A DNA stretch of 64,000 nucleotides. It comes from Raillietiella orientalis (Eukaryota). The notes under the pieces are model-generated. The model had not been told where the DNA came from. It saw nothing but the letters and a program-made list of their open reading frames with translations, and did no database searches. The stretch's first letter is position 1. Every line of letters begins with the position of its first letter. Location: assembly GCA_036172245.1 (NCBI GenBank), contig JAYWIR010000020.1:2232001-2296000 (forward strand). The letters run 5' to 3'. Shown piece by piece: positions 10,050 to 37,690 of this stretch. Made by a program: the position numbers and the translations under genes.

Positions 10050-11371
10050 TTAAATCTAAATGTGACTTGCATCCATCTAATTTTTCCTTTGTCTTTTGTT
10101 TATTCTTGAAGGCATTCTTTTTTCTATGAACTCTAGAGTGAGAATCTTGAAAATCCGAAAACTCCAGCAAAGCCGAATTTATTTTGTTGACATTTCATAA
10201 TTTGAAAAAACACTTTACCGAACATTATTATCATACGGAGATTTTAAAGATACGTGCAACTCCCTCAGACTGTAATGATTCTGTTCTTGCTGCCTTGATA
10301 AATAATTGGGGAAGTTTGAAGGTGATGGAATAGCACCGTGATAAACCGCTATTTAATGTGAGATTTTGAAGACATCTGGCATCCCAGCATGCAGCTTGTT
10401 TTGAAGTGGAATCTGCAGAACTTTTCAGGAGCAAAACGTGGTAGTCGAGTCCGTAGCATTTGCTGACTTCTTTAAAGTGACTTGGAAGCGACATGTGTGA
10501 GATGCTGGAGTATTATCGTCGTCTGGAAACGAAACTTTGGACCCTTAACATTTCCCCCGAAAAGGAAAACATAGTATCTTTAATTGTCAACGAGATGAAG
10601 AGTGATGGTCACATCAATAAAGAAATTTGCACACTTCTAGATTCCGCAAATGTATGTTGATTTACATTTATTGGTAATAAATTGGCATTTGGGAACGTGA
10701 ATGACTGGTTTTCATTTTTTTCTAAAACCGAAAAATGACTTTTAAAGATAACGAGAACCTCAACTCGTAAGACTGTTGTAATGTAGCTGATTCCAAGGTT
10801 TTGTCAATTCTTTTGGAAGAAATTATTGGTTTGATGTTTATTTTAATTTCCTTCTTTATTTAGATTGAATTAATTATCCTGCCGCGTCCGAATCAACACC
10901 ATTCAGATAATATAATTTGGCAGCTTCTGCTGAAGCACACTTTTGAAATAATTTTTAAAAATAACTCCATAAAAAATTAACATCATTATCCCCAAGATAA
11001 ATTTTATTTGGCAGATCAGATCACCTCTTAACTAATCTGTTACCCCTAAGTTCATTTTTCATTATCAGCTTCAAATATTTCCACCTTGAGACACCTTACT
11101 TTCACATCTAAAGTGACTAAAAACCTATAGTTCAAAACCTGTTTATTTCCTAAATTTCTTGTAGATGGTGCACAAGAGTATTTCCTCAAACAAAATAAAA
11201 CAGTTGTACAATTTTGGCAGCTAACAAAATAACCAATTCTTATGATAGTGTAATCAAGATCTGTTGGCGTTTTTAACAGTTTTGTACAGACTTCCTAAGA
11301 ACATATTAGTTTGCTGGCACATTGCATGATTGATGAAGTGTTTAGAAATATTAATGCACTTTGTTATGCAG

Positions 11372-14327
11372 GATTTGTCAGAACTATGTGAAGGCGCACC
11401 AACCCCAAATGTCATGATTGCATGTTTTTTTTTTGCTGCCAGTGAAGTAAGTCAATTGCAATCCAGTTAAAGTATCTAGTTTTGCATGTTGAACTAATTA
11501 GCTTGGAATGAAAGAGGAACAGAGAAGTCAAATGGATAAGTTTCTTAGTTATCTGGAGAAGAAAGTTGTGGCAAAAAATGTAGCATTGGAATTATGTAGT
11601 TGCATTTCATGGATCTTTGTACAAACCACATTATACTATCATGTGAGTATTTTACAAATCGAACATTTCATATTTCCATAGGAACTATCACATATGCACC
11701 TGGATTTTTATTTGTATTCAGCACTGAATCAAATTCATCCTGTTTTAAGTGCAGCATGCTTCATCATCTTAGATTCCATTCTTAGTACTAAGTCTGCCCT
11801 AGTCAGGTTTGCAATCTTTACATTGGTGATTCATTTGATAGGGCATCTGCTTGCAGTGACTATCTGACATTACACTTCAACAATGTTATTCCAAGTTGTG
11901 TGCTTCTTGTAATGGAGACTCTTGCATCTCTATGTGAGGATGACTTGGTACTCTTGGCTGATAAAGTGAGCTGGCTTAGGATTCAGAACTGATGCAAAAT
12001 TTAGGGATCTGTTCTTTTACAAAGAATATTGTCATGCTCTGCAAGAGGGTCTATGCAGTCCAAATGGCTATGCATCCTCCTTTTGAGGAAGATTAGCAAG
12101 AGCTGTTGGCCTTCCTTTGATGAGCGCAATAAGTTGCCTATGAAATATTTGCGGGATATAACGTGGTCTCAGCTGACCCATGCTACTTGTGCCTTGTTTT
12201 GCTATCTGTTTTACTTGGATTTGGTGAAGGCGTCAGATACTCAAAGTTCCCATGTTAATCTAAATGGATTAGATACTATCATCAAATTGGGATCACTTTT
12301 TCACTCTTTGGATTCTCCACACCTCATGGATGTATTGGCTGTAGTAGAAGAACTGCTTGTGTCACATTTATCTAAGAAGTGCCAGTTAGATAATGTATAT
12401 ATTCGTGCGTTGGACTGGTTTATATGTTGCAATCCGTTCCCGGAGCGATCTTTGAAATTGGGTACTGCATTAAGTCAAGCAGGCAAAACACTGCAGGAAA
12501 AATGGATGTGTGGCCACATGTCTTTGAATATTGTTGGACAACATCAGTACTGCCATTTACCATGTGAGTGTATGAGTAATGATCAAAATTATGGAATCTG
12601 GTTAAAGCTTTTCAAGAATTCCTGTCTTCACTGGCTTCTAGTCATCCTGTTACAGATGTGAGAGATCGCTCTGCACTCATGCTTCATGGTAGCTTAGGTC
12701 TTCGGCTGCAGAGAGAAACTTCAGTGCCTGCTTGGAAAAATTTTTTACCATTCCTTCATGTAATTCATGTCCCAGATTTCCTTTCTTTCCATTTGCAAGA
12801 TGCTGCACAAATGTCTCCAGCCGAAATTTCTGGTAGCTCCCTGCAGCAGACATGGAATTGCTCACTTCACGTACACCCCAAAAACTGGTCTATACTTCCT
12901 TCTAAGCTATATGGTTGGTATTTTCTAATTCTCAGTTTTGTGAAACAAACTGGTATACATGGAGATAATGGTGATGAATCACATATGATACGATAACTTT
13001 TCCTTGCATTTTAGTGTCCCTCTAATTTCCATGTTTTCATGTACAGCAAACTCACTATGTTTGCTGAATCATCTTATTACAACTTAGGTCTGATCAGTAC
13101 TATACATAAGTCATGTAGCTTGCGAGTATTTTTGTCATTACGAAAGTTTGTTTTTGATTTATTGATTGGCTTTTTCCTCTAGTAGTTTTCATGATACATG
13201 TTCAAGCATCTGTAAAAAACGTTCTTGCAATGATTGTACAGTGTGGGATTTATCATTTTTGTTTGCATGTGGACTGTAAGCTTTACTTTGTTGTGAAGAT
13301 AATGACAGACAAGGTGTGCTTTTTACATAATTGATTGCATTTTTTTAAATAATCAGTGGAACTCTGTTCATCAACCAACATGCTGGGAACAAATAAATCG
13401 AAGCAACTGTTTGAAAGAGTTGCTATATTGAAAAAAAAAAGAAGTTAATGGAAGATTATAAAAATTCTCAGGATTAAGTGGACAGATCCCCGAAATTCTA
13501 ATTCATTTACTTATAAATTACTGAAAAATGCCAACTTTGGGTGTACACAACGTTCAAGTTCTGTTTGCAAATAAGGCAGTCACTTGGAAATGTTCTCACA
13601 TGAATAAATGTCATTTTATGTGGTGTAACAGTAAAATACGGTTACTGTGAATTGAAAAATATTTTGTAGGTGTGGTTCTTACTTTGCAACCAAAACATGA
13701 CAGTCTTGTGATACCAAATGTATTTGTTCCCTTTTTGGATAAGCATGTTTCTTATTATCCTTTGAGGGTGCATTTTGAATTACAGCATCCTCTGCAAACT
13801 ACAGTTCAGATCTAGTAAGGATAACTCCAGTGAAAGAAAAAGATCTTTATTTCTAGAAGTGCCAACTTCTCAGATTCTGAAGGGCATTCATATAAAAGCC
13901 AACTTCCATCTTTGCAGTTATCATCTTGTCACTTGTGTGCATCTTGTGCTTTTCAAGGTACTTAAAAACTGTATTGCTCACTTATTAAATCTGAATTATG
14001 CATGGAATCTTAGAAAAACACTCATGGATTCAGTACTGGAAACAACTAGAGGTATCCCATGTTGTTACTCTTCATCTCCAGCCCAATCAGCTGATGGAGC
14101 ATTTGCAGAAACAGTGGAATCATTGTCTGATGTTATGGTCAGATGATGTAGAAGTTTTGTACTTAGCATTTCAGTTGCCTCCACATTTGCAAGTTCTAGC
14201 TAAAATCAAATTACTGCCAACACGTTGTGTTTTTAACTTTCGTCTTGATGATGATAGATTTTTGCCCCTTATTAATGATATTATCCTTGAAATGGAAAAT
14301 AGTTTTTTAAAAAGTGATCAGCATTAA
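11372..14327 (+). CDS. Unidentified multi-exon gene encoding a Leu/Cys-rich, probably alpha-helical protein; 5' end not defined
   Basis: Phase-compatible GT-AG exons 11372-11446, 11502-11642, 11682-11806, 11842-11965 and 12005-~12563 join into one open frame (DLSELCEG...LGMKEEQ...ELSHMHL...ASACSDY...GSVLLQRIL...). Each intron removes an in-frame stop or a frameshift. A last exon 14175-14327 (LPPHLQV...KSDQH*) follows a 37-nt intron. Exons at 12.6-14.1 kb are only partly resolved. Confidence 0.65.
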
Positions 14328-15416
14328 AAGTTATTAAATTACTATGGGTAGTTGAACTTATTTGATGTCACCCATAAGTATTGAAGACAAATGCAATTTC
14401 TAAATTGTTTTATCATTTAGAACTATGCAGCTTATTGATCTTGGGAATGAAAACTGCTTGAATTTACAATAAGTTGCGATGTAAAGTCCCAAGTTAGCCT
14501 TTCAAAAGAAGCATTATCGAGAAGTTATGAATTGTTTTTGGTCTCTAGAATTAGAGGACAAAAATTTCAAAGTTAGCTGTCCAAAACAAAGTATTTTTGG
14601 TCTCTAAAATTAGGCACCAAGAATAGTTCATGATTATTCAATAATGCTTCTTAATTATAGATTCTTATTGCAGCGTATATTGTAGTAAAGCACAAGCAAA
14701 AACATCCAAAAATGTGAAGGCTTAAAATTATTTTTGGATTCATGAATGCAGCCTTGGTTATTGCTGCATAAAACAAGAAGTGTAAAAAAAGAAACTCAGT
14801 TGTTCCTGAAAGATCATAGGGAGGTTACATGACAGATAATGAAGTACACACACTCATATGCCTTCAGGAATGCTATCATATTTTGTCACAATATACAGCA
14901 AAACGTGCTAACGGAAAGCTGTTTTTACTAAAAATGGAAAACATTTTCATGAAAAAGGTTTTTTGGAAGCCATTCTAATTTGCTGCTGCTTCAAAATTAA
15001 CTCAAAATTAGAATTAAGTTGAAATATCATAGAAATTGACACAGGAAATGGTATATTCAAAAGAATAATGTAGATCCATCTCTGCAAATGTAATACTGGT
15101 ATTCAGCACTATGGCCAATGGAACAATGTCTTTTTTCATACCACCTTGCATGCTAACTTCTTTTTACCATTTTTTCAACACCACGTTTTTTATTCCATCT
15201 AAAATCTGGATACTCAGCATACTTTATTCCAACTTTAAAATTGATTTCCCTTTTTTTTTTTTTGTCTCCTACTAAAAGCAGAAACCATTTCCTACACTTT
15301 TGCAAAAGCACCTGAATGTGTGCACATATAGTGAACTGACTTGGTTTTCCCAAGACCAGAAACTAGGAGTAAAATAATCTATGATAAGTTATCGACAGTC
15401 ATCCATTAGCATATAC

Positions 15417-15422
15417 TTTATT
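15417..15422 (-). terminator. Polyadenylation signal (AATAAA) of RACK1
   Basis: TTTATT on the + strand, 6 nt beyond the RACK1 stop codon, implying a very short 3' UTR. Confidence 0.65.
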
Positions 15423-15427
15423 GCCCA

Positions 15428-16838
15428 TTAGCGGGTGGGAATAGAAACCTGCCACACTCGAATCAAATTATCAGAATATCCTGCAAATAATGTCTGGCCT
15501 TCTGCAGACCAGGCAATGGACAGGCACTGGGGAAGTTCAGCATAGTTTGTAGTTGTGATCACTTGAGGTCTCAATTCATCCACCAGATTCTTGTTTTCCA
15601 AATCCTAAAAGAAGCACCAACATGAATGCACACACCCTGATTCATGTGCAATCTTACCCAAATTTTGATTGTAGAGCCAGTGGCAGCACACAACCAATAA
15701 CGATTTGGAGAGAAGCACAAAGCGTTTATTGGAGTTACATGATCCAATGTGTAAAGGCGTTTGCCTTCATTGAGATCCCATAACATTGCTTTTGAATCTT
15801 TTCCACCTGATGCACACAGAGAACCATCTGGAGACACAGTAACTGTATTCAAATAGCCTGTATGATCAGCATGATTCTTTTTTAATTTACAATTTGTTAA
15901 ATTCCACACCTGAAATGGAAAAATAGACCAATTAAATTGAACTCAAAAATGAAAGAACTTACCTTAACTAACTTATCCCAACCACAAGAAACAATGATTG
16001 GATTATTGTTATTAGGTGAAAAACGCACACAGCTCACCCAATCTGTATGCCCTTCTTCCTAAAATACCCCAAAATTAAAACAAAATAAAAAAAAAAAAAT
16101 TCTTACCATGATAGTATACTTGCATTGAGCTAATGTATTCCATAGCTTGATGGTCTTATCTCTACTTCCAGAAACAATCTGCCTATTATCAGCAGAAAAA
16201 GCAACACTGAGTACATCCTGTAAACTTCAAGTTTTAAATTTATAAAAAAAATAATTCGACCTTACTTTAGAATGATCTTCAAATCGTCTTGCTGTCTTAC
16301 CAGTTTGTAAATCCCATAAACGCAGGGTTTTATCCCAGGAACCCGACAATGCAAAATGTCCATCGCTTGACATTACAACATCGGTCACAAAATGGGAGTG
16401 ACCATGCAACCTTTTCAATGGAATACCATAGTTCGTTTCATCTCGTGTCAACTTCCAACTTATTAACGTTTTATCTAATGTTTAAATATTTCGATATTAA
16501 AGAGTGCAAGAACTTGAACATAATTACAACAGCAAATTACAGTATACATTTCAGTATTTCGGTAATTAAATACTAAGAACAAATGTTACACAACATCACA
16601 ATAATGCTCATCTTGAAAGTTTGCAGAAAGCATACAAAAGGCAAATCTCATTGAAACAAATAATCAATTTTTGTCCACACTGAGAAGAATACAAAATACT
16701 AAATACAGTACGAAAGCCATAAAATATACCTCTAGAAGCTGATAATATCATATCAGGATATTTGAGATTTGTTGCTATTTGTGTCACCCATCCATTGTGA
16801 CCCCTCAAAATTCCACGCAAACTCATTTGTTCTGTCAT
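15428..16838 (-). CDS. RACK1: Receptor for activated C kinase 1 (40S-associated 7-bladed WD40 protein), 317 aa
   Basis: Exons 16838-16730, 16474-16266, 16217-16107, 16058-15963, 15909-15658 and 15604-15428, all GT-AG. Translation: [23 protein letters not shown]...SASRDKT...GHSHFVTDV...[13 protein letters not shown]...[13 protein letters not shown]...[13 protein letters not shown]...[15 protein letters not shown]. Confidence 0.98.
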
Positions 16839-16952
16839 GGTTGTTCAGTGAATGTTGCAGCCTAAATTTAAATGTTATCCTCAGAAACACTGCTTACTAT
16901 TCATCAACACAAACACGATCAAAGCGACACGTCCAGTATCGCCTTTCCGTTT

Positions 16953-16962
16953 GGAAAAGGAA
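16953..16962 (-). promoter_or_regulatory. TCT / 5'TOP-like polypyrimidine initiator of RACK1
   Basis: Minus strand TTCCTTTTCC matches YYCTTTYY, about 115 nt upstream of the ATG. This initiator is characteristic of ribosomal-protein-class genes, including RACK1. Confidence 0.6.
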
Positions 16963-19900
16963 TGCCACATTCTCCAAGTAATTCGAATGTTTTAGCGAAA
17001 TAATGTAACGAAATCACTACTGAACTGTTAATATATTATGTGTAATATTACATCAATAGTATCAGTAAGGAACTCTGAATTATAGTGCTAATAATAATAG
17101 CACAAATACTTCCTCACTTTCAGTGTAGATAGAGAATTTACAATGCAAGTCTGAATTTAATCTATCCTCTGATATACCAATAACCCAATTTAAAATGTTC
17201 TTACAGAAGAGTGAACACATATTTATCAGTGTTTTGGTTTGCATACAAAGTGGATAAATAAACTAAGAAAATAAGGAAACTCGAGAGCCGAATTAGTGAA
17301 AAGCAAACAGAACTCTTCGAGTATCCTCTTCACTGCGAAGTCAACAGGTTCTCTTCTGGCATAAATGTGCATAAACACATGAACACACGTTTTTAGGGTG
17401 CGCGCCTATTTGAGAGAAGTTTGTCTGGTAAAAATGCTACAAATCTTGCGATCTTATAGGCTAAAGAAGAGATGAGATGATGGATTCGAATAAATCTCAG
17501 AGATCTATTTTAGGTAAGATATTCTGTAATTAAAACCAAATTATAAACAATGAATTCTGAAAAGGATGAATTTTCCAATGAATTTGATACTTGTGTCAGT
17601 TGCTTTCTCATAATCCTCTCTCCATACGTTTATACAACGATCTGCATTTATAGCTCTTGATACAACGATATTCCCATAGCTGGTTTATAGCATCACCATA
17701 CTGATTAGAAAGACTTTGCCACAAAGGAAAGTTTCCTCATTATTTACTTTATTTGGTCATTATGATTCCGAAAATTGATTTTGTTTCCTCCACATTATCT
17801 CTCCTTCATTAAACTGATCAAATGCAACTGTGAGCAATCATTCGAAAGGTAGTAAACGATTTTCTCAGAATAAAAAGTGATAACTAACAAAACAAACTAG
17901 TGTTATTCACAGTATTAGACACTAAGATGCATATTATGAATGATAATCAGATGTAGGTATGCTTCTATGCTAAAAGTTACAAATAACTAAAATGGTCAGC
18001 AGAGAACAAGCAACGGGTGTCTTATTTTCTCAGTGTTTGTATAAAGATGATGCTACAGTTCAAATTTAATAAAGAGCTGAGTGATGAAGAAAATCAATTT
18101 TTAAAAATGGAATGAGGAAATCATAGTTATTACTAGGATATGATTTCAGAAACTTTTGAATCACTCAGAACTCTTAATGAACTCTTTAAGTTCGTGCAAT
18201 CAAAATTGTCTTTACGATGAAACCGACTCGTGCATGTACATCTACATTAAGAATGCATTCAGAATGCATCCAGATTCATGGAAGAAAAAAAGACCCAACT
18301 TGAAAATGCTATCATGGAAAATTGAAAGAATCCCATGAAAACCTGCAAATTCTCTTCCGATGCAAATGGGGAAAATAGAAAGATGTTTCTTCTGTTTCGT
18401 TTGGGAAGAGTCATGTGAAAAGTGAAAAAGAATCAATCATGGGGTTCTTTGTTGAAAGCTAATGCCAAGAAAGCTGAAAAGAACGCCGAATAAATCACAA
18501 TTTCAACGGATTTTCTGTCTAAAGAAAAAGCAACACAAAACATGGCAAGACTATTTTGGCATGATTTTCCTTGAGAATATGGAGGGCAAAATCGGAAAAA
18601 TCAGCACCTGAAAACAGAAGGGAGAAAAAAGCATAGTATGACAAATCTTTCTAAATGAATTTAAGGAATGTCATGGTTGACACTCTTCAGTCTTGTACTT
18701 TTAAAAAAAAAAAAACTGCAAATGTTGCTTAATGCTAATGCTCAAAGTCTTTGTAGAATATTTTCCTGGAATGTTTCATAGTGCACAAATAGATGCCCCA
18801 AAAGCATAACAAAATATCGAAGACCATAATAGCTACCAAACTTAATAGGCAGCATTTTAGTTGTTAAACAAGCAGTTCCTTTTGAAAAATTTCTGGTCAT
18901 ATCTCGTGAGACAACCCTCATAAAATTAATTTTCAATATGTAGATGGCATCTTTAAATTCGGTGGTCTCGACGTTTCGGTGTTCAATAATGCATTACCAC
19001 CACCACGAAGCAAAGAAATCATCATCTGCTGACATGCATCACCCAGAACCAGCATAATTTTGCCACAGTGGCTCATCTTGCACACCGGCGATGATCAAGT
19101 TTTATTCTGAATTACTCAGGCGAGCTTGGTTTTCAGTAAGGAATTTCAAATGTATTCGGATCTATTTTCAAATTTATTTTTAAAGACTGCTCCACAGCTT
19201 GCGACTTGGATGAACACTGTGGTGTGCTCTATTTGCAGATAAGTAGCATTTGCTTGCAAATATTTCTGTCTTTCCCTTTCCAACTTCGCCTTCCCCTTTT
19301 GAAAGATCATTTACAAAATTCAAATTACGAATCGATTCTTAGTTCTAGCAATGTTTCCACCTTCACACTTATCGGTATGTAAACATACTGCATTTAGATT
19401 TGTGCAATTATCTGCGAATCGGTCAGGGGGAACTGAGTGTTCGCAGTCTCCTTATGTGTGCACACAAGCACATGTGATTTCTTTTTTTTTCCTCCCTTGG
19501 AACTTTTCAGCAATGTAGGAACCCTATGTGTTCGAGCGAAAATTCACCGAACTCGTGTGGCACTTTTGTCCGCTTCTTCCAAAATCCAAGTTAGGTCGAT
19601 GAATGGGAAAAACAAACAACGCGCCTACAAACCGAGCAAATGTAGAAGAAGTCTCAGGGAACTCTCAGACGACACGCAGTTCCAATAACAGCCATGGATT
19701 AAATTGAATTCACCGACGATCAGAGAACAAAATACTTGATTACGTGATGAAATTCAAAATGATTTTTTTCCTTCTTTTTTTAATACTCTGAATTTGATGT
19801 TTGCAATTCAGAGCTGTGAACATGCAAAATCCAGCTTGCATTTAAAATAAATTTATTTTGTCTACAAGGGAAATTTGGACTGCAGGTTGTATAAGTGCTT

Positions 19901-22608
19901 TGAGCACAATTATTTATCGCATCTTACTGACTGGAAAATTGAAAATTGGAAGTCAAATGCTTCCATTAGCTTTTCTCTGAGTCATCAAATCAGTTAATTA
20001 TGAATGCATATATTATGGGTTAATACATTACACATCCGAACAAGTTTTTCCGGTATCTGTAATTGTTATTTATTGGTTATGAATTCATTTTTCGCATTGC
20101 TCAGTGTAAACACTTTTGAGGGGGAGAAGAAAGCAAACATGAAATTTTGGTTCAATTGCGTTACCAAGCGATAGTATCTTTGCAATCGTAAAGCTTTTTG
20201 AAGAGGATTTCCATACAGACGAGTCTTAAATTTTGCCTTTGGTTTTCCTAAATGAGTCCTAAATGTTCATCGAGTTTAGCGCAATAGATTGTTGCATTAA
20301 ATTTTGAGACATTTCTTTACTTATTAGTTACATTAATCCCATCGATCGGATGGCATTGTCTCAAAAGAACTTTAGAGTCTACTTGTATACAATATAAGTA
20401 ACAAATACAGTTGGTAGAATAATAATATATGTTAAGGCTTTGCTTGATAGTAATTTTATCATTGATATGATACATCATTTATTTTTCGTGTCTCTTTACC
20501 TTATACAGAGTAAAGCAATACAGATGCTTAGGAGATAGTTTAAGAGTATTAGAATAATGTTAATTAATAATGAGTAATAACATAGAGGTTGAGCTGGGGA
20601 AAATTCTACCATTGACAATGGTACACATTGAAAGTTAATTGTACTATGTGCACTGAAAGAGTGTGCCCATAAGTGTAAAAACAGGAAAAGGAATAGTCAT
20701 ACAACTTCTACGACGTTGTATCATAAAGGAAGATCACATGAGAGGTGTGATGGTTATGAGTAATGACTTTTAATCATGAAAGAGAGAGAGAAGGCCAGAT
20801 ATTATACGAAAGCCATGGAATCCTGTAGCGACGAAGAATGTGTAGAGTCAAACATGGAATCTTCAACGGAAAATGCGAGTATAAAATATTTTGTGATTAG
20901 AGTTGCGATGAATCGAAGACCGATGGGGATAGTAATAAATAGGCAAAATTAATGTAAGAGAGAAACTTTTTTTTTTTTTTTTCCCAAGAGGGAATGATGT
21001 GTCCACGTAACTAAAATGCCTGATCTTAGAAGAACAGTGTTGAAAAGTGGTACTTGCATAGAGGATGGTGAAGAGGTATTAGAAGGGGTCAAGAAAAACT
21101 CAGTTGTGGATCGACTCTTAATCTAGAGTGGAAAAATGATCTGATGAAGGAGACGAATTAAAGTGATTTCTGAGAAAATAAATATGATCCTTGCAAATTC
21201 GAACGTTTTTCTTATTTTAATTGGAAGAAATACCCATAAATGAAGATTCAGATATAATATATCTGACTCGTCAAAAAACTGTAAATGAGAATTGCTTTCT
21301 TTTTGGGAAAAATAATTTTACATAGGATCTCATAATTTAGAATATACATGGCCCAAAAAGTGCACTATATACTGAAAATGAGGTTATCAACTAAAGTTCT
21401 GAATCGTTGAAATGTCGTACTGAAAAATGGAGGCTTTATAAAAAGTATCAGTTATCATCTAAGAGCCTTCAGATGAATTTAAATTTCTTGCAGACACGTT
21501 TACTTTTCCGTATTTGCAATCTGATGGTTTATTTTGATGTAGTAGGGGAATCACTTTTTTCTAGAACAAGAAAAGTAAATCTGAGAATAATCTAGAAGAA
21601 TAAATCTTATTTGGTTACTTCTTCTCCTGATCAGCGTACTTGTAAACCATCCTTCTCTGCATCATTATGATGTGATCTCAACGATGCTAATCTACTGCAT
21701 AAATGATATCTAATGCAACCTTTGAAGGTTTAAACAATTACATAAAGATGTAAAGATTGCCAAGGCCTCGAAATGCAATCTTCAGATCAACGAATTCAAA
21801 TTCAATCTTCAACTAAAATGTTTGAAACCAGCAGGTTCTGAGCCTGATTTGCCCCCTCCCTTACTGAACGTCTTGCCCCTTGGAAATTTTTGACACGGAA
21901 ACGATCGCTTCCAGCAAAATTAAGAACTACAATCTGCATGATACTGCAATGCTTTCGTTAGATCATTATTTAATTGTCGATTCTCCTCACCTATTTGGCG
22001 TCTTTAGTAAACCAGAAATGAAAAACAACTGGTTTCTAACACTTAATTCAATACATATCGTGGGGAGCGAGGGGGGGGGAGGAGAAAAGAAGGAACAAAG
22101 CTGAATGCTGAAGGCAGAGTGTTCGAAACCAGGTTTTGAACACTTTGCTTCCGAGTGGGGAATAGAAAAAACACGACGGATTCTCCACATCTGATCGTAT
22201 TTCTAAATAATTAATGGCGGGTTAATTGCAATGCAAATGAACAGAATGTGGAATCGGAAAAAAATGTGGACTTCGATTTTTACAGGAGGGGACTCAGCTT
22301 CCAGGAAACGGTTCCTCGATTTGCCCCCAAATTTTGCATGCCCAGTTCCGTGTTTGCTTATTGAAAAAAAGGGATCCAAAATCATTTCGAATAAATTACA
22401 GGCCCTCTGCAGAAAATGATAGCAGCGCGATGTAAGCGAAGCTGCAAGGCTGGTTCTTTGAAAGAGGTTGACACAGACTCGAAGTAGGTGTGAGATGCCT
22501 TGCAAAGTAATGTATGGAGTGGAAAAATAGCATTCATGGGAAGATTTTCATTAACATTTGTATTAATGCTACTTTCAGCTTTCGAATTGTAAATGAGTTC
22601 CATTTCAT

Positions 22609-22641
<33 letters not shown>

Positions 22642-23193
22642 AGCTTAAGCATGCATTCAGTGTTGCGTTAGAATGTATTTATATCGAAATCGTACAGTAA
22701 TGGCATGTTTTATTTTCATGATTGCAGGGACTGAATTTGTGTACTAATATGTTATGTATGTAACTTCTGAGTAAGGTAGGAATCTGCACAAGCGTTTCTT
22801 ATTTGGTCTCATTTTAAATTGCAATGTTTTTTGTTGTTCTTGGAAACAATGCTGTTTTGATATTATATTACTCAAAGATAATGTACATTATTTGGGATGA
22901 TGGTGTCAATATGTGTTAGTACGAAGCGTGCAGGCTTATAATTCTGGCACGTAAATAAAGTAGGTATTTAGTTAATATTTGGCAGCAAAATTCGATTTCA
23001 GTTTTCGATTTCACATCAATCTTAATTAGATCTCAAATTAGAAAGTTAGTCAGATTTTTTTGTTTTTGCAAAAGGATGTTTTTTTTTTTTAACATAGTTT
23101 TATACCTGCAATGCATTAATTTTACGGTTCCGTCCATTACGCCCGTTTTTTTGGAATGGAAATTGTAATTCTTGTCAAGCATCAAGCTGATCC

Positions 23194-23513
23194 GTGAGTA
23201 TAAGAAAGGGGAAGCTATGTTTTATAAAAAGTCCCTCAAACGTACATGAATTTTCAGTGGATTTTGTTGAGATCGGTTTTAATTTGTATTTCGTTTCCTA
23301 GATTTTATAGTTTAGAAAATTTGGAATGTGTTTGTTTTTTTATACCAAGTTACAAGTGTGCATATGAAATGTGGACATGAAGGTCAAGGTTTTTCAGATG
23401 ACATTTGTTTTTATTGTTAGTATTGCCTTCATCGAACGCTTTTAATAAAGCCAAGGACAAGGTGTGCAAATTTTTGCCAAGTTCAGATTAATTTTGATGT
23501 TGCTTTTCTTTAG
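23194..23513 (+). other. Probable 5' UTR intron of the PP2A catalytic subunit gene
   Basis: Strong donor CC|GTGAGT at 23194 and acceptor TTTTCTTTAG| at 23513, 28 nt before the ATG. Confidence 0.5.
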
Positions 23514-23541
23514 AAGTATTGGAGTATTTGTCCTTTTAAAC

Positions 23542-24737
23542 ATGTTGCCGGAGAAAAGGGCGGAACTCAAAGAATTAGATCAGTGGATTGCACAGCTTGG
23601 TGATTGCAAACAGTTGCAAGAAAATCAAGTGAAAGTATTGTGTGAGAAGGTAAATAGTTAGTTGGAAAGTACTGTATAATGATGAATAAAAAGGCAAAGG
23701 AGATTCTTTCTCGGGAATCTAATGTCCAAGAGATTACCCCTCCTGTAACAGTATGTGGAGATGTGCATGGGCAGTTCCATGATCTTATGGAGTTGTTCAA
23801 AATAGGGGGAAACTGCCCTGATGTGAATTACTTGTTCATGGGAGATTATGTAGATCGAGGATATTATTCTGTGGAAACTGTCACACTGCTTGTGGCTCTT
23901 AAGGTAACTGACGATTATCTACATCAAAAAGTTAATGGTGTTATAGGTGCGTTACAAAGATCGTATCACCATTCTCCGTGGCAACCATGAGTCTAGGCAG
24001 ATTACTCAAGTGTACGGTTTTTATGATGAGTGCTTGCGTAAATATGGAAATGTTAATGTGTGGAAACACTTTACTGACCTGTTTGACTACCTGCCCCTTA
24101 CTGCCCTAGTAGATTCTACCATATTTTGTCTGCATGGTGGTCTCAGTCCCTCTATTGATACACTTGACCATATTCGTGCCCTAGATAGGCTGCAAGAAGT
24201 CCCACATGAGGTCAGCAATGTTTTTATTTTATTCAAGGACATTGGTGCATTCATTTATTTAGGGACCAATGTGTGATCTATTGTGGTCAGATCCTGATGA
24301 TCGAGCTGGTTGGGGAATTTCTCCACGTGGAGCTGGGTACACATTTGGCACAGATATTTCAGAGAGTTTCTGTGCCACAAATGGACTGAAGGCAGTTTCA
24401 CGTGCTCATCAGCTGGTGATGGATGGATTCAACTGGTCAGTGGTCACACCTAGAAATAGTCTTGCAATTCTCATCTTAGGTGTCACCATGAAAAAGTTGT
24501 CACCATCTTCTCTGCACCTAACTATTGCTATCGTTGCAGTAATCTAGCAGCTATCATGGAAATGGATGAAAACTTGGACTTTGTGTTGTAAGTATTATTC
24601 CCATGCTCCCGCGTTTGCCCGGCCCCTTTTGGCCCCATAAAACACGCCTTTGTGTGTGTTTCAGCTTGCAATTTGACCCTGCCCCCCGCCAGGGTGAGCC
24701 TTTCACGGTCAAGCGCACTTTGGATTATTTTCTCTAA
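23542..24737 (+). CDS. PPP2C (mts): Serine/threonine protein phosphatase 2A catalytic subunit, isoform with last exon A (tail ...[16 protein letters not shown]), 311 aa
   Basis: Exons 23542-23649, 23694-23903, 23947-24210, 24263-24435, 24480-24587 and 24665-24737. PPP motifs GDVHG, GDYVDRG, RGNHE, HGGLSP, RAHQL and SAPNYCYRC are intact, and the N-terminus is PP2A-type (ELDQWI...LCEKAKEIL). Confidence 0.95.
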
Positions 24738-24916
24738 TACGAGTTAGTTTGCTCGCCCCTCCCTCAATGCCTGCCTTTCTCCTTTCCGGACTAGGTCAAG
24801 TTGTACTCCCTCTTCCCATCCTAGTGTGGGGTTGAGTGTTGAAACAAATAAAATTAGCACAGAATATAATGCCTTGTAAGGGTTTTCCCAGGGGCCGGGC
24901 AGATTGGGAGCTGGGA
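24599..24916 (+). promoter_or_regulatory. Long-range intronic RNA duplex (24599-24627 with 24890-24916) enclosing PP2A last exon A
   Basis: TCCCATGCTCCCGCGTTTGCCCGGCCCCT pairs with AGGGGCCGGGCAGATTGGGAGCTGGGA: 27 pairs (3 G-U), two 1-nt bulges, and a perfect 12-bp core TGCCCGGCCCCT/AGGGGCCGGGCA. Both arms are GC-rich islands in AT-rich introns. Confidence 0.8.
24847..24852 (+). terminator. Proximal poly(A) signal for PP2A last exon A
   Basis: AATAAA 110 nt after the exon A stop codon and upstream of the exon B acceptor. Confidence 0.7.
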
Positions 24917-24953
24917 TTGACAGGATACCCATCAAGTGCTGTCCTTCTTTCAG

Positions 24954-25026
24954 CCTCAAATTTGAACCCGCACCACGCCGGGGTGAACCCCATGTAACCC
25001 GTAGGACGCCTGAATACTTCCTCTGA
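24954..25026 (+). CDS. PPP2C (mts): Alternative last exon B of the PP2A catalytic subunit (tail ...[23 protein letters not shown])
   Basis: Acceptor TCCTTCTTTCAG|, same phase 2 and same 73-nt length as exon A, open to TGA. It matches the canonical PP2A tail [19 protein letters not shown] more closely than exon A does. Confidence 0.93.
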
Positions 25027-25102
25027 ACATTGCCACTAGGACCCAATCTGCACGCCGTCCTTTATTCCTCGTTTCTGGGCATTTAACACCAGACCAATAG
25101 CC

Positions 25103-25108
25103 AATAAA
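25103..25108 (+). terminator. Distal poly(A) signal for PP2A last exon B
   Basis: AATAAA 77 nt after the exon B stop codon. Confidence 0.7.
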
Positions 25109-28100
25109 AAACCATCTTTTGTGCTATCAAGTATTCATGGCCTTTGCCTCACAATATGGTCAAATAACACAACCTGCATGTAATTGGGATCTTGGATGCT
25201 TATACGATGGGTATCCATGCCAGGAGTGTTTGCCTGTGGCAACTATGATCTGTATGTTAATAAAGTCTTACCTTGGGATCTACATTGATCAGGATATGGT
25301 CCCTTTTGCACTGGAACAGAATCCCTTTAGTGGACAGCAGCAGTAATTGAAAATTGGGAGAATCATTGGCTATAGTTTGCCTGGTGTGCCAGTTGCAATA
25401 GCTAAGATCTGTCACACAAGGCTGCAAAGGCACTTGGCTGTGGAAATGTTGTTCCCAGTTGTCCTCATGTAGCCTGATAAAAATTATTGCTTGTTGGAAA
25501 TTGGTAGTCTATTCTCAACCTCTGTTCATAATCTAAATAACCAGCAACTTCACAGCCAGAATGGGTCAGATTTCTTATGTAAATAATAGTCTGCAAATCA
25601 ATAAATGGAAAATAGACTTTTGCAATGGGTTACATGGAAAATCTTAACATAATTGCATTGCAGACAAGGTCTTTGATTGATTAATGCATATGACTCAATA
25701 TGAATGTGATTGGGTGAGGCAACTGAACATTTGGAGGATGTAAACATGGGCATTGCATTAATGTGACTGACTGTATTGAAATGTTTTTTTGAAGTGGATT
25801 AACAGATAAACAGTCATATCTAATGTCCTAAACAATGAAATCCTAAGAATACTGCGTATTTTGGAGATAATTTCTGCATTGATTCTGTAATCTTGAACAT
25901 CAGAGTTTTGGATTTTGAACCCCATATTAAATTTTCCAACAATAACTCCATCAATCACTCAGCTTGATGTGTGCTGCAGTCTTAGAATTCACATGTCAAA
26001 AAACTCACTTTCTGCAAAATGAAGTTCACAGTTTGAACCCATCAACTACTTTTTGCTACAGTTTTTCCACCTAAATCAGAAATCAATAGGATTTAAAGAA
26101 AATGGAAAGTCATGAAGGGAGGAAGGGGTTTGATCTTACAAGAATCACTGCATAGAGGGATGCTATCAGCATCCTTGGCATTTTACATCTTTGTAAGAGG
26201 CAACTGAGTAATCCCCTCTATGAAGAGGTTTGCTAAACTGGTGTGACAGTTAAATAAAACTTCCCAATGCTATAAAAGACTTCATAAATAACTTTTCAGC
26301 ATCTAAAGAGAAAAGGTATTCTGATGGTTCAGTAGTTCATACAGACTCAGTCTTTGTAAACATATTAGATTAATTGATTAACGTTTCATTAAATCTCCTT
26401 AGATGGCAGCTCGCATTTTCTTTGTTATTATATCTTTGAGAGAATTTCAGATGTTTCAATTAATGAATATCATAAATGTATGGAGTATCGAAAAAATGTA
26501 TAGCATCGCACACCATAGTAAGGTTCATAGTAAACGTAGTAATGCCTTTTCTAAAGATAAGGAATTTAGTGATGGATATAACAATAGTTTAATTTATAGT
26601 CTTTTTTAATATACATATGCAGAATTCAATAAAAAGATGCTTGTTTAAGATCATTTACAAAATTGTTACCAGGGATAACCGACAAGTTTGGGCTATATAC
26701 TGAATTCTAACCGAAAGTATGCATAATCCGACATACACAGTCATGTAAGTGGTATTTTGAAGCTTTGGCAAATGACATGGGGGCGCAGCGACACGCTCAA
26801 GCATGGAAACGTTTCCTCACTTGGACAAAGGCACTTTGAAATGGTCACAGTGCACAACCGATAAAAAGAAGAAAAGAAAAAAACGCACAGCCGAAATTTT
26901 AAAAGGGCACTCCTTCCGTTTTTTTTTTCAGATTTTTAAAGACGAAATGTGAAGACCAAATGCGTTCATTATCGGAATTCTCGTGAGAATGCAATATTCG
27001 AACGCCACCGTGCTAACAGTACTACTGATATAAGTAACGACCTTGCAAAGTAATTAGTTTTTACCATTTAGGTACGAGGATTTCAGAAGACCATTTAAAT
27101 GATCTTTTCCGAGATTATCATCCGATTAAGTTGCAAAAACTGAAGTCGTGCTTTCCTGAGTGAATGAATCGAATGAATCGTCAATGCATGTACAATTCAT
27201 GGTCTGTACACCTCCAAATACTTGTCCATCTCCCACAAAGGGAATTTCGACTTCGATTCAAAGAATCTGACTGAGGATTCAAGCAAGGGTTCATCAATGA
27301 AAGCATTTTACATGGAAAAGTAAAATAAATGGGTCATACTGAAGGTACAGATACAGTTCCCATCATGATAACAGGCTTTCCTAACAGGCAAAGACAGTGA
27401 TGGCAATGTAGTGCTGTTGAGTAAGATAATGGAAGTATTTGAAGAGAAGTTCTTCCAGAAAAGGCTATTCTCAATTTGAAGTGCTGGCAAGTGGGGCACA
27501 TCTCAGGACCCACGATGCGCAGCTACATTTCCGGAAGCTCTGCGGCTGCTTCGTATTTCTTTCAGGATATTTCAACGTGTGCTCCTTTTTTTCCAAAATT
27601 TGGGATGTTTCAGTAAAACACTGTTTTCCGTGAGAGGAGCTGCTTTGCCCCCAACGTTTTCTGAGAACGATGTCTGTCGAGACCTTTGACCACATTTGAT
27701 GTGGAATATGAAGGTAGCCGATGAAAGCGGATTTTAAGCAAGGATGGGAAAACACCGATAGCCATTACAGCCGAAAGAACGTGCACCCCTAATTCTCCAA
27801 AGAGACAGATAAAGAGAAACAAAGTTCAGAAAGAGAAATCCAAAGTAGGCTTTCGTGTGATTATCGTATCTGAATGCGAATTCCGAATCCATCCCTTCGA
27901 ACTCCCCTCCCCTCCCCATGGAGGCAGCAGCCATATGGAAAACACACAAAACGGTTTCGAAGAAGTATGATTGATTACGTTAGGGCCCTTTACTCGTACA
28001 TTAACGAGGGAAATTTCATTCCCATCGATTCAGCTCTTCGCACAATGTACGCGACGCTTAAGCACACCCAACTTGGAATCCACGCATCATCTCTTGGAAT

Positions 28101-31966: not shown

Positions 31967-34900
31967 TTTCCCCCGGTACGAATCTGCTTAATTAGCGCAC
32001 TCTTCCAATTTTCTGTGGGGCTGATGCTCTCCCGACGCGGCCTTCCCGCCGAGACCCCCGGCAACTCACGCCCTCCATTGTTGCTTGGTTTTGCCAGAAG
32101 TTTTTTTTTTGATTTTTAAGTCTCGATTTTCTTTTCCTGGAGATTTTCGCCGGGTTTCCCCTCCACGCTGACCACGTCACCCACCTCCTGCTCCAGCCTG
32201 CAGAAGGAAGATTGCAATTTATAAAGTTCGATCTATCATTCCCCTCCAAGGCATGCCCGCTATGCAGTTACATGTGGAAAAGATGGAAAATCGATAAGCT
32301 GCTAATTCGTTAATACTCCTGGCAGTAGATGTTCGAACAGAGACGAAAATGCCTGGTTAAATAACGCGCACACAAAAAGTGAGAAATGTTTTTTTGAGAA
32401 CTCGGATCGTGTACGGTGCTCCAAAGGTGTCAATATGTGTGTGTGTGTGTGTTTTTTGTTTGCATTAAAAACCATCAGACACAAAAATCATCGATTATCA
32501 ATTAATACGTTCCGTGTCTGCTCCACATTAACTGTAATGGAAGTACTCAAGTTCCGAGTACATTTCCTTTTTTGCTTTTTACTTCCAATGCTTTAGATTG
32601 TTGGTGATTACATATATCTTTTAGAGTAAGTTAGCTCCATGAATACGAATCAGTCCATACCGCGAAAAGGAAAATCATGTGTTTGATAATAAATTCATTC
32701 TCTACTCTAAGTCAATTTCGCTTATTTGAGTAAATAAATACCCACAGGGCGCAAGAACAGATTTTGTCTCAGTAAAATCTGTTCTTGTGTCCGGTGGTTT
32801 TGCTGCGTTGAATCCAATAGATAGGTTGTGTAATTCAGAATTTCGAGAAACTTTCAAGACCAGCTGCTGAAATGTTAGATGCGCAGTGGTGGTGACGGCC
32901 GTGACGAAATCACACAATGTTCCCAAAAGACTGTGTTCACAAATCAAAGGAGAGGTATAAGCTAAAGGAGCCCAGTATCAATAAAAATCATCTGAGCATC
33001 ATTTGTCAAGTTTCCGGTTCCTTCCTAGTGATACAGTTTCGCCCGGTTCGAGAGCATGCCGAAAGTGAGAGAAGTGTTGCACAATTCTTCCGTAAACGAA
33101 TGCCATTTTTCAAAACACCAATTCGAGCAGCATGAGCTGCTAAAGTCGTATTAATCCCTGATCAAAAAATCGCCGATCAAGCTTTCGTGTTTTTGTTGAA
33201 CAGGAGTGTTTGAATGACGGCCTAGTTTCAGTGTTGTGAAACTAAAAGCTATTTAAATGATAAGAAGAGAAAGTGAGAAGCAGCATTATAAACAACCATC
33301 TGGGGCGATATCAGTTGCTATTCGTCGAATTTCAAATTTTTGTTTATGAGACGGTTAACAGAGGTCCAGTCCTACATATTCTGACACCCAGAAAAGATGA
33401 TCGGATTCCTGTAATGAATTGGATAACATTACGAATGATATCTTAATCTTACATTACTGGTCAAAAATAAGATATATAGCTGCTACGTTTTTGCACTGAG
33501 AAGCCAGACATATGCTATCAAAAAACCGGTGCTTGCAGTTGGTCAAGAGATGCAGCAAGCATTTCGTCTGAAGAACCAAAAACTTTTTCAAACGGTTTGT
33601 TCCAAAGAAAGGAACATATTCCAAACCAACAAGTTTTGTGTGTCTTCCACTAGGCACTGTAGCGAAGGAATTGCTGTTTCGGTCTCTGCAAATTCCTTTT
33701 TGTAGCCGGAGTGAGTGCGTTAGGTTGAGAGTAGGGACCACAAATGATATCGCAGCTAAGAAATGTTCCGGATAGTCATACGGAGCAAATTCATACCGAA
33801 AAAATCACTGCAGATCTTCAGAATGATTAAAAAGAAGAAGAAAAAGGGGGAAAAAAAGGGTCCATAGCTGGTCGTGGTAGCACGGGTACAGTTTGGTTGT
33901 TTCATGCTTGCAACTGAAGTCCAAAGGTAAAAAAAAAGATTCACCGAAAACGTACAAGCACCATCCGAAATCTGCCAGTAATGCAAAGTCCATGTTTTAA
34001 GACGAATGTGGATGGACAGCTGGAAAAGAAGGCTACAGACGTTTGCAAGTGGGTTGCAGTCCTCATGACTTGCCGACGCAAGCTTCCCGTTCTGCAGTCT
34101 ATTGCAGATGAACTTGAAGATGCCAGCCCTCTGATAATGACGAATCCACTCACTGATTGCGTAATGCAGTGTCGCTTAGACTGGCTCAAACAAAGCAATG
34201 CAAGGACAGTGGAGGTAATTGCTAATAACAATCTGCAATCCGAAGAACGTTCCCAAAATTTGCGTGATGGCAAATGGGTTGCATTTGATACCATTTCACT
34301 GGCTGCATGAAACTTCACGAACCCAGTCCAGAATCTGTGTTCAATCAGCTGTTTCCGAAAGGAAACACTCCTACTGACATGTACACACAAAGCTTGGTCA
34401 GCATCTGAAATCAAATGTGGATTTTTTTTTCTTTTCCTTGGGTTTTCCTTACACAACTTTTATGCAATCTCTTTCGAAGTATTCACTTCTCTCGAAGAGG
34501 ACAAGGTCCCGTGAGTACGCAGCAAGTGGAACAGGACGAAGACCAATTTTTGCGGGATAAGCAACATCGACAAGTTGTTCAGGCTACCAGGATTCTCTGT
34601 TTTCTATGTCTCCTGCTGTTTGTTTTCGACGGAAAATGCACTCTGCTATCTACCATCGAGGACTGCTTTTGCCGAGTGCACATGCTGTTCTTGGAAACGC
34701 CATTCGCTCAGCACGGATGCTTGCTGAGCGAATGGCACTAGCGAGTGGGTTCTCATCTGAATCAAGCCTTTCTTGCGACTCCGAAGAATGTTGGAAAACG
34801 ATGAGATGATCTTCGACCTTTTCTTTTTTCTTTTTTTTCCTTTTTTTGCGTGTGTCCTATTTCTGCTGCTGCAGTGGCACCGACACGCTTCGCCCCCTCC

Positions 34901-37319
34901 CTGACCGCACAAGAACAAAAACGATCCGAAGACAACTGAAGCATTTCCTGAAGCGTCAGCCGTTACTCGGTCACACCGAAATGTCAAGATGGAGTACGCA
35001 AAAATTACCGCTAAGTGGTCAGTAGCGTCAAGTGATCGTAAGTCCAGTGCCCGAAAATTCCCATATCGATCTCGGCGACGGAAATCTTGGCTCTCTGTAA
35101 TAACGCCTCCAGGCGCTATGTCACGACCAAATCCCGATCCATAGCTGCGGGTTGCGGGAGGCACACGCGCCATGAGCGAGCCTGCTAGAGAGAAAAAAAA
35201 CAACCGGAAGGCAGATGAATTGCGATTCTTCCCAGAGTCTTGTCGATGTTTGGTGCGCTGGATCGGAGGGGGTTTCGCTTGGCCTCCAGCATTGGTCTCG
35301 TCTATCTGCTTTCCCTGTTTGAGAAGATGAGGAGGACGAGTTCCAGCCTAGCACCTTGCCCTAGCCCGTGTCTTCCATGTGGACACAGCGACCACCTGAT
35401 AACCGCCGAGACGCGCGCCATCTCCAAGGAAACGGATTTTCTCTGTGAGTTCCGTGACGCTGTCGAGGATGTCTAAATTTCCTCGTGACCTCAGACGATT
35501 CACGAAGCACAGGCGGAGCATAGGGTGGGGCACTGCCTCTGTCCCAGGAAAGTCCTTTCTGTTTCCCATCGGAGATGGCCAGCCTCCGCGGTGATTGCAA
35601 GACGCAGCATGCATCAAGTTGGCTTGGACAGTGGCAGCCGCAACTCTGGAAGCCGAGTTCCCTAATTCCTCCACAGCCGGGTGCTGATGCTGATGCCGAC
35701 GGAAGAGCGGTAGAGATGGCTGAGGGAAAGCCCAGCGAGAGGTCCCGTCTTGCTGGAACCAGAAGTTCCTCTCCAACAGAAGCACCTATGACATTATCGA
35801 GACATCCTTCGTGGTGAAAGATGCGAGGCTGTCTCTGAACGAGCACAAAAGCCTTTTAAAGATGGAAAGTGAAAGGGGGGGGGGGAAGAAGGTTTTGCCA
35901 GGCAACCGAGATGCGGCCAGAACTCGTGAAAGCGTTTCACGCGCTGTTCTCAAAGGTCGAAAGTACCGATGCAGGCTGTTGACCGGCTCTTGATCTCAAG
36001 GTGCTGAAAAATGTTCGGGAGATCGGAAGAGCGTCGGCGGGGGCAATGCGTGGGACGTGAACCTTCCAGAGCCAGCGAAGCTGCAGCTGTTGGGGTCGCC
36101 GCCAGGGTAGGACAATCCTTCACGCCGAGTAATTGATTCGCGGATCTCCTTCCTCGCATTTATTCACACCGATCCACGCCTTGGAGAGATCGGGCTGCTG
36201 AAGGATCGAGTGCTGACGTCATGCTCGGAAGCCCTTCGCCGGCGGCTAGTGCTCGAGACGCCTCCTCTCTCGGTGGAGAGCTACTCTTCGCTCTCGTTGG
36301 ACCAGCGCCTGAGATGAGATAGGTTTTTGCTCTCTTCCTTTCGCGTTTTCGTGGGAGGATTCTGGCGACAAGAACGTTTCCACCCTTCGGGTCAATTGAC
36401 TGCGGGTCAAAACAATAAGCGGCCTGTCCTGACCAGCTACAAAGAAACGAAGCGGTCGGCTGGGGAAAGCCGGCCAGCAAGGCCTCTTTCTTTCCCTTTG
36501 TCCGGCAATCTGATACGAGAACGGCGTATCGCGTGGCTGCAGGCAGGGGACCCGCAAGGTGCCATCTCGAACGCCCCGGAGCAAAGTCTGTTTTCTTGCG
36601 CAACCTCCGGAACCGAAACCTCCTCGGGTTACCTTCGCGCTACCGCAGCTTGCCGGGAGCCCGACGCCTCGGTCTCTCCCTCTCTTCCTCCTCTCGAAGC
36701 GCGGGCGCTTGCCCCGGGCGCGCACAGGACCACCCTCTTCCTGCGCCATGGCCCTCGGCCACCTGCTCGGTCTCGTTGCACCGACTGGGATCGCTTCCCC
36801 TCTGAACGCAGACCTTGGGACAGCCTCCTCGAGTGCCCCGCAGGAAGAACAAAAATACGCACGCACGCATGCGCGCAACTCACCACGCCTCTCCAGATGC
36901 TGCTGCCGCGTGAAACCGCCCTTGCGGACGGGCCTGCGCTCGCCCTCTCCGGAGGGACCACGGAAGGGAACCGCTCTTCGAGTTCGTTCTTCTGAAGGAC
37001 TTCCCCGAAGGGAGCACGCGCTCTCAGCAGCACGGCGAGGAACCCCCGGGGGATGGTCTTCCTCGAGAAGCCGATCCGGGAGACCACGGCTCGGATATCC
37101 CGAAGTGAAACTCATGGGGGAGGCGCTCACTTTTCCGTGGCTCCGCTGATGTCTCGGGCGGGGGGGAGCCTCCCTGTCGGAACTTCCTGGGAACAGCTTC
37201 CGCGTCAACCTCCCTTTGTGCTGCTGTCGAGGAGCCGCGTCGACAGCAACCTGTTCGCTCGCACGCAGTAGCGATCGAGGAGTGCACGGGCGACAGGATA
37301 AAAAACAGCACCCATGACG

Positions 37320-37450
37320 GAGGAGGAGGAGCAACAAAAGAGGAAGAAACGACAATGGGAGCTGCAAGAGAAGCAGCAACGACGGTGAAAGCAGGAGCAG
37401 CAGACACTAGCAAGAGCAGCAGCTACAGTGGAAGAAGCAGCACCAGCACT
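37320..37450 (+). repeat. Low-complexity (GCA/GGA)n-like tract
   Basis: Degenerate AGCAGC/GGAGGA runs, which produce spurious Ser/Ala/Leu-rich ORFs. Confidence 0.6.
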
Positions 37451-37499
37451 CATAATGAAAGCGATACTATAACAGCGAACATTCTTCGTTCATTCCATC

Positions 37500-37690
37500 G
37501 AAGGACTTCTCCGAAGGGGCGCGCTCCCGGCAACCTGGACAGGAATCCCCCTAAGGAAGGATCGGATCCATGCCACAAACCGGAGGGGAACTCGGAACCC
37601 TCCGTAACTCCTGGAATGACCCCGGAGGGACCACCCCCAATTCCGGCCAATCGACAGGGTATCCGGACTCCAGAGCGCGCACAAGCGCTA
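37500..37690 (-). mobile_element. Decayed LINE-like repeat fragment related to 54300-54520 and 50050-50300
   Basis: CAAACCGGAGGGGAACTC...CTCCGTAACTCCTGGAATGACCCCGGAGG aligns with CAACCGGAGGGGAGCTC...CTCCGTGATTCCTGGAAGGACCCGGAGG at ~54403. Minus-strand translations are VIPGVTEGSEFPSG...GSDP and VLPGITEWELPSG...GADP. Confidence 0.55.

Follow-up and report, generated by a model that had tools for sequence, protein, structure and literature searches.

Two homologous terminal tail exons, one within a predicted long-range RNA stem, in a PP2A catalytic-subunit gene of Raillietiella orientalis

The PP2A catalytic-subunit gene and its two tail exons

This report concerns a gene for the catalytic subunit of PP2A (PP2Ac) from Raillietiella orientalis, located in a 64,000-nucleotide (nt) stretch of contig JAYWIR010000020.1 (assembly GCA_036172245.1, positions 2,232,001 to 2,296,000, forward strand). 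This stretch is called the window, and all positions are counted within it. Direct reading of the sequence, three-frame translation and spliced models place one intact gene on the + strand at 23542-25026, in which five common coding exons are followed by two homologous terminal exons, A (24665-24737) and B (24954-25026), each able to supply the protein's C-terminal tail. That one gene makes two PP2Ac isoforms is a well-founded inference from the features of this locus.

The first coding exon (23542-23649) begins with ATG at 23542 and contributes 36 codons, and the second (23694-23903) carries the GDVHG and GDYVDRG motifs; both are supported by translation, the spliced model and tblastn, and exon 2 additionally by an RNA contig at 23742-23905. 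Exon 3 (23947-24210) carries GNHE and HGG, and in the translation all four catalytic motifs are intact. It also gives the Pfam Metallophos match (E 7.4e-17) and aligns with residues 105-192 of human PP2Ac alpha at 183 bits, a calcineurin chain reaching 124 bits and PP1-type chains 96-98. Exon 4 (24263-24435), read from the translation and the spliced model, has 4433 protein matches, of which the best listed is 86% identical. Exon 5 (24480-24587) ends in the TT of a split Phe codon and is followed by the donor GTAAGT at 24588. The Metallophos match, the motifs and the closest solved relative, human PP2Ac alpha, identify the predicted product as a PP2A catalytic subunit, as the initial annotation had proposed. 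Because no chain named PP4c or PP6c was among the 60 sequences shown in the comparison of exon 3 with solved chains, what separates it from those two enzymes is the tail, together with the named top matches of exon 4.

Exons A and B are each 73 nt long, lie in the same phase and are preceded by TTTCAG, and their initial C closes the split Phe codon (TT|C). Both code for 23 residues, with TAA as the stop codon in A and TGA in B, and both have an AATAAA of their own downstream. The coordinates and translations of these two paralogous phase-2 exons, including their separate acceptors and polyadenylation signals, were given correctly by the initial annotation, according to the spliced models and tblastn. 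Either exon completes an open frame of 936 nt and 311 amino acids, and the two predicted proteins are the same over residues 1-288, with differences at 9 of the final 23 positions, tail A ending in TLDYFL and tail B in TPEYFL. At the DNA level the pair appears as a 42-nt direct repeat, 79% alike, with a period of 289, while the flanks of the two exons give no convincing alignment. The 3' untranslated region (UTR) of exon A extends from 24738 to 24862 and contains the AATAAA at 24847-24852. For exon B, a putative 3'UTR with an undefined end would cover 25027-25125, including the AATAAA at 25103-25108.

Transcript evidence for exon A

RNA evidence comes from one public run (X1; Logan contigs, share 0.10, RNA type guessed), of which three contigs were placed on 23300-25800. 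One of them covers 23336-23459 and joins 23459 to 23512. With the cut moved by +2, this joint becomes a 52-nt GT..AG intron in the 5'UTR (23462-23513), preceded by a 5'UTR exon whose contig-covered part is 23336-23461 and whose start is not defined. Including this one, the introns of the gene other than those before the tails measure 52, 44, 43, 52 and 44 nt.

The third contig, 223 nt long and without a single difference from the window, joins 24587 to 24665 across a GT..AG intron and runs on to 24862, ten bases past the AATAAA of exon A; this contig end is a weak hint of the polyadenylation site. Exon A is used and spliced to exon 5, and the junction 24587-24665, which the initial annotation had put forward as a check, is present. 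Since two GT..AG joints were recovered, one in the 5'UTR and one from exon 5 to A, the X1 material is spliced RNA. The sample is not identical to the assembly, because it differs from the window at four positions (23413, 23547, 23831 and 23846), the latter three being synonymous third positions of codons. The contigs leave 23972-24559 and everything from 24896 onwards uncovered, exon B included, and are silent on B.

Divergence of the two tail exons and selection on both copies

Exons A and B differ at 30 of 69 coding bases. The Nei-Gojobori proportion of synonymous differences (pS) is 0.80, beyond saturation, compared with 0.32 for nonsynonymous differences (pN). The encoded peptides share 14 of 23 residues, 10 of which are specified by different codons, and the stop codons differ as well. 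In a neutral simulation, in which 31 random substitutions were placed on either exon in 200,000 runs each, 11-12% of runs preserved the frame and stop, 14 or more residues stayed identical in 1e-5 to 2.5e-5 of runs, and no run combined such identity with an intact frame. Judged by codon usage, it is the peptide rather than the DNA that is conserved in both copies. Because neutral drift almost never yields 14 of 23 identical residues at saturated synonymous sites, both exons have been retained by selection, which agrees with the earlier suggestion drawn from their preserved frames. These results support an old duplication with purifying selection on both tail exons; with 23 codons, they are also compatible with a very recent loss of one copy.

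The same divergence bears on the possibility that the duplication is an artefact of assembly or a chance resemblance, which is very improbable and in favour of which nothing was found. Duplicated reads would be near-identical, and here 30 of 69 coding bases differ and the flanks cannot be aligned, by which an assembly artefact is ruled out. Exon A and its splice are moreover found in contigs from a sample that departs from the assembly at four places elsewhere. Chance cannot account for a pair of tail homologues that are in phase, lie 289 nt apart and have no further counterpart in the 64 kb. A further candidate explanation, that the tails belong to two separate genes, was rejected on the tblastn result with two full-length PP2Ac proteins, in which the whole window holds one set of upstream PP2Ac exons and exactly two tail segments.

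Comparison of the tails with those of other PP2A catalytic subunits

The tails were compared with 126 complete tails taken from 120 listed protein matches and 80 metagenome loci. The initial annotation had described the TPDYFL tail as nearly invariant. This holds for the Pro at position -5, which is present in 125 of the 126 tails, the single Leu belonging to a divergent metagenome sequence (L031). For the motif as a whole it needs qualifying, since TPDYFL itself accounts for 86 tails and TPEYFL for 11, with Glu at position -4 in 14 of the 126.

Tail B matches reference tails at 19 of 23 residues (83%, tblastn), fits the ending T-P-[DE]-Y-F-L, and departs from the commonest animal tail among the matches listed by three conservative changes only (K, E, E). 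Tail A keeps the T, D, Y, F and L of this ending and lacks the P, with Leu in place of Pro after the tail Thr and an altered basic stretch upstream. Both tails end in YFL and retain the Thr at -6 and the terminal Leu, which in human PP2Ac is carboxymethylated. Set against this collection, tail B is an ordinary variant and tail A the unusual one. With respect to canonical PP2Ac, most tails have Asp at -4 where tail B has Glu, and all but one have Pro where tail A has Leu.

CDK1 is a proline-directed kinase. Because only tail B keeps Thr-Pro, the A form should escape the CDK1 mark, the Thr of tail A no longer being a site for proline-directed (CDK1-type) kinases. According to two reviews (PMC12557939, PMC10770906), B55 binding is blocked when CDK1-cyclin B phosphorylates T304 of PP2Ac, and methylation of L309 raises the affinity of PP2Ac for B55/B56 subunits.

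Several public PP2Ac predictions from other organisms (P0004, P0016, P0042, P0080 and P0107) end at the point where this gene has its last intron, with the endings …KYNL, …KYSL and …KYTL. These truncated predictions would be explained if the models had run on into an intron at the corresponding position. A phase-2 intron ahead of the tail would then appear to be widely shared, and the tail exon to be an old separate module in many lineages. They also suggest that automatic annotation often loses this tiny exon.

A predicted long-range stem around the A cassette

The region between the exon 5 donor and exon B contains a GC-rich inverted repeat with 12 of 12 complementary positions (24616-24627 with 24890-24901), which forms the core of a longer structure. 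The core extends to a predicted 27-bp stem, with its left arm at 24599-24627 and its right arm at 24889-24917 (+ strand), enclosing 24628-24888 and with it the whole A cassette, that is, acceptor, exon and polyadenylation signal. As counted from the printed pairing, the stem consists of 18 G-C, 6 A-U and 3 G-U pairs with two single-base bulges, and its energy is -54.3 kcal/mol. Over the 366 nt from donor to B it appears in the minimum free energy fold as well as in the centroid fold, with pair probabilities of 0.88-1.0.

The stability of this structure exceeds what composition and chance would produce. The donor-to-B interval folds at -124.3 kcal/mol, compared with -101.1 +/- 5.4 in shuffled sequences (z -4.33, 0/100 as good), and the duplex of the two flanks reaches -64.6 kcal/mol, compared with -38.1 +/- 5.0 (0/400 as low). 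When the same geometry was slid over the window, 1 of 623 placements reached as low a value, as did 1 of the 164 in which each flank had at least 50% G+C. The 12-mer of the arms is found only at these two places in the 64-kb window. A pairing of the right arm with the 3'UTR of exon B, which would have given mutually exclusive structures, was also considered and rejected, 28 of 400 shuffles being as low. A large near-perfect foldback lies at 60574-61350, with nested inverted arms of 25-62 nt that are 88-100% complementary, and is probably the single slid placement that beats the PP2Ac stem. Smaller hairpins occur at 14506-14652 and 61633-61690. Over the tail exons and their surroundings (24500-25100) the + strand shows an excess of C.

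The spacing of the elements is striking. The donor is followed by 11 nt, the 29-nt left arm, 37 nt and exon A; the right arm begins 27 nt past the end of the RNA contig and is likewise separated from exon B by 37 nt. Closure of the stem would bring the donor to within 48 (11 + 37) unpaired nt of exon B, an effective intron that fits the usual 43-52 nt of this gene, and the intron before exon A measures 77 nt, that is, 48 plus the 29-nt arm.

This geometry bears on the proposal that only exon A is used today, B being the ancestral terminal exon that became redundant once the upstream duplicate had taken over all splicing and polyadenylation, and that has lacked the time to decay. In favour of A alone are its position ahead of B, its separate AATAAA and its observed junction with exon 5, as well as the 366 nt needed to reach B, an unusual length in a gene whose introns measure 43-52 nt. 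Exon B, however, keeps 19 of 23 reference-tail residues despite saturated synonymous sites, so it was under selection for almost the whole time since the duplication and its silencing would have to be very recent, and it retains the TTTCAG acceptor, the stop codon and the AATAAA. Under exclusive use of A, the stem that yields a 48-nt effective intron would lack a role, and the gene would make just a tail without the Pro found in 125 of 126 tails. We consider this explanation unlikely, and prefer the use of both exons.

Occurrence of the two-tail layout in other loci

A regular-expression scan revealed a second tail exon in none of 80 metagenome PP2Ac loci. In the tblastn survey, 77 of the 80 loci had a + strand tail, and 57 of these had at least 300 nt downstream; a second same-strand tail was present in 0 of these 57, although this is a weak survey, as most of the loci look like transcripts. 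An intron before the tail was counted in 13 loci, and was clearly present in only 11 of the 57. At one locus (L071), the PP2Ac tail at 2540-2608 (+) is accompanied by a second, divergent tail ending in …RRTPDYFL at 6133-6204 (-), 3.5 kb away; this opposite-strand tail is probably part of another gene, a convergent paralogue. Tails resembling A were also sought with a 54-amino-acid in-frame read-through of the intron and exon A. This query gave 6 protein candidates, none of which scored, and 590 pattern matches in metagenomes, none of which was confirmed.

Origin and use of the two exons: points for and against

Taken jointly, the findings are best explained by a last coding exon that was duplicated long ago, with both copies kept as alternative terminal exons and a stem that loops out A. 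We give this explanation a probability of roughly 55%.

A number of observations weigh against it. That exon B is spliced into mRNA is something we infer. The nearest proteins, which are animal-type sequences, are only about 83% identical over the full length, and no close relative of the gene emerged, the best exon 4 identity being 86% among the best 120 of 4433 matches and at most 85% among the 80 metagenome loci. This PP2Ac is unusually divergent for an animal and may be a side paralogue rather than the main enzyme. The two-tail layout appears, from the loci surveyed, to be neither general nor widespread. The sequence around the tail exons (24500-25100) has a G+C content of 0.47-0.545, as against 0.25-0.41 in introns 1-4. 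The stem is only slightly more stable in the sense than in the antisense strand (-54.3 versus -49.3 kcal/mol), and because of this small gap an inverted repeat at the DNA level is possible.

This last point leads to an explanation in which B is the normal last exon and the A cassette (about 24600-24915) was inserted with terminal inverted repeats, carrying a tail exon captured from a paralogue. The repeats would be left over from the insertion, and the A isoform would be a tolerated by-product rather than a form selected for regulation. It draws on the 27-bp imperfect inverted repeats at both cassette ends, on the nearly equal stability of the sense and antisense stems, on the ATT that flanks both arms (24597-24599 and 24916-24918), on the ordinary intron of about 47 nt that would remain after excision of the bracketed segment, as is fitting for an inserted cassette, and on the other inverted-repeat or foldback elements of the window, at 14506-14652 and 60574-61350. 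The three-base flank match is nevertheless weak evidence, and the arm 12-mer has no further copy in the 64-kb window. Exon A keeps its frame, length, phase, stop codon, FDPAPR..GEP block and DYFL despite 43% base divergence, and it is spliced and matches an independent contig with 0 differences over 223 nt. An insertion in which A is a mere by-product is accordingly quite improbable; an insertion origin as such is compatible with present-day use of both exons, and the old duplication with two retained terminal exons continues to be the preferred explanation.

Other features of the window

Pfam searches of 148 open reading frames (ORFs) gave matches for two only. One is an exon at 13995-14324 (+) for the C-terminal domain of an AP-complex beta-appendage, an adaptin exon for which no homologue was found in a large protein collection; the other is an exon with WD40 repeats at 15574-15942 (-). 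A search of Rfam gave no match. A single ORF of 622 residues at 41678-43546 (+) shows Cys-rich motifs repeated along the ectodomain, ends with hydrophobic segments and lacks a Pfam match; the atlas cluster closest to it (score 0.93) is 'Methuselah N-terminus domain-containing protein', in which arthropods are commonest. This context, along with the AATAAA signals and the animal-type sequences nearest to the PP2Ac, suggests an invertebrate with very short introns. The region 50382-51080 shows a weak 7tm_2 match (E 0.004), below the cut-off.

The G+C content alternates along the 64 kb, with values of 0.50-0.60 at 1-6000, 34000-41000, 44000-52000 and 56000-58000 and of 0.33-0.37 at 8000-24000. 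In the G+C-rich blocks both strands are full of long ORFs that overlap, and Pfam matches none of them. At 22607-22635, upstream of the PP2Ac gene, lies a stretch rich in A, with about 26 A in a row.

Relation to known systems

The catalytic motifs are common to this gene and to canonical PP2Ac (human PPP2CA; structures 2IE4, 2IAE, 2NPP, 3DW8 and others), from which it differs in having two alternative tail exons within one gene.

The arrangement recalls tandem duplicated exon substitution. In human genes, according to the available text of a survey (Genome Biol Evol 2022, PMC9741552), 77 of 236 such events are C-terminal swaps, most residue changes are conservative, and the tropomyosin genes carry tandem 3' exons. 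The likeness would lie in adjacent homologous exons that are swapped to give homologous alternative C-terminal peptides, and the exons described here are adjacent, homologous, of compatible phase and each able to complete the frame. The difference is that the swapped peptide would be a 23-residue tail bearing the known PP2A regulatory marks. The terms 'PPP2' and 'phosphatase' are absent from the main text of that survey as available. The initial annotation knew of no described case of such a gene. A full-text literature search, with subscription journals outside its coverage, did not bring up any publication about duplicated or alternative tail exons of PP2Ac, and to that extent the statement stands; the general class is well known (PMC9741552), and to that extent it has to be narrowed.

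A second parallel is the Drosophila gene Nmnat. The available parts of Raker et al. (2009, PMC2724269) describe boxes in intron 4 on both sides of the proximal acceptor, which leads into an alternative terminal exon provided with a separate polyadenylation site. Destruction of either box sharply cuts distal splicing, and compensatory changes restore it. In that gene, as is proposed here, a stem brings the distal acceptor near and is needed for its use, and two routes give different C-termini. The locus examined here also has boxes that bracket the proximal terminal exon, with a pairing stability beyond composition and chance. Unlike in Nmnat, the stem encloses the whole cassette including the polyadenylation signal, and both exons are terminal and homologous. 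The Nmnat structure was shown by mutagenesis and conservation in 12 species, whereas the present one is predicted only.

Loop-outs are also reported for human genes (Kalmykova et al. 2021, PMC8052449). Inclusion is lower for exons that lie between stable complementary regions, and in FGFR1OP2 the looped-out exon is an alternative terminal one; as a proposal, the same study ties RNA folding to the suppression of intronic polyadenylation. These cases share with the present one the enclosure of an exon by long-range pairing, in FGFR1OP2 of an alternative terminal exon. They differ from it in that the human pairings were defined by cross-species conservation, while the stem described here is predicted from one sequence. 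Overall, the kind of arrangement, tandem duplicated C-terminal exon substitution, is known, and what would be new is its presence in the PP2Ac tail together with an unusually clear predicted RNA switch.

Proposed mechanism and biological meaning

Two routes that compete during transcription can be proposed. In the first, which is observed in RNA, the exon 5 donor is promptly spliced to exon A, and the transcript would be cleaved at A's own polyadenylation signal. In the second, RNA polymerase II would pass the polyadenylation site of A and transcribe the right arm, upon which the 27-bp stem would close. The closed stem would loop out both the acceptor and the polyadenylation signal of A, and the donor would be spliced to B over a distance usual for the introns of this gene. 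Exon choice could in turn bias which B-type regulatory subunits join the enzyme, since the marks that decide on the regulatory subunit, Thr phosphorylation and Leu carboxymethylation, sit in the last six residues of PP2Ac.

Carried further, this mechanism would provide the cell with two enzymes, one with a Thr-Pro tail and one with a Thr-Leu tail that CDK1-type kinases could not mark, in a ratio set by the RNA stem, so that the choice of holoenzyme (B55 versus others) would be controlled by pre-mRNA processing. This extension is tentative and, on balance, doubtful. If true, control of PP2A holoenzyme choice by pre-mRNA processing would be a layer not described for this enzyme, and it would provide a genetic, splicing-level means of setting holoenzyme composition. 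In the parts of the cited literature available here, PP2A control consists in the modification of one fixed tail, whereas in this gene two selected tails would be drawn from one locus.

The stem would offer a simple, testable handle on the switch, and its 11 + 37 nt geometry would illustrate clearly the way in which a far acceptor could be brought within range where introns are minimal. The two tails would amount to a natural experiment on the roles of the Pro and of the basic patch upstream of it.

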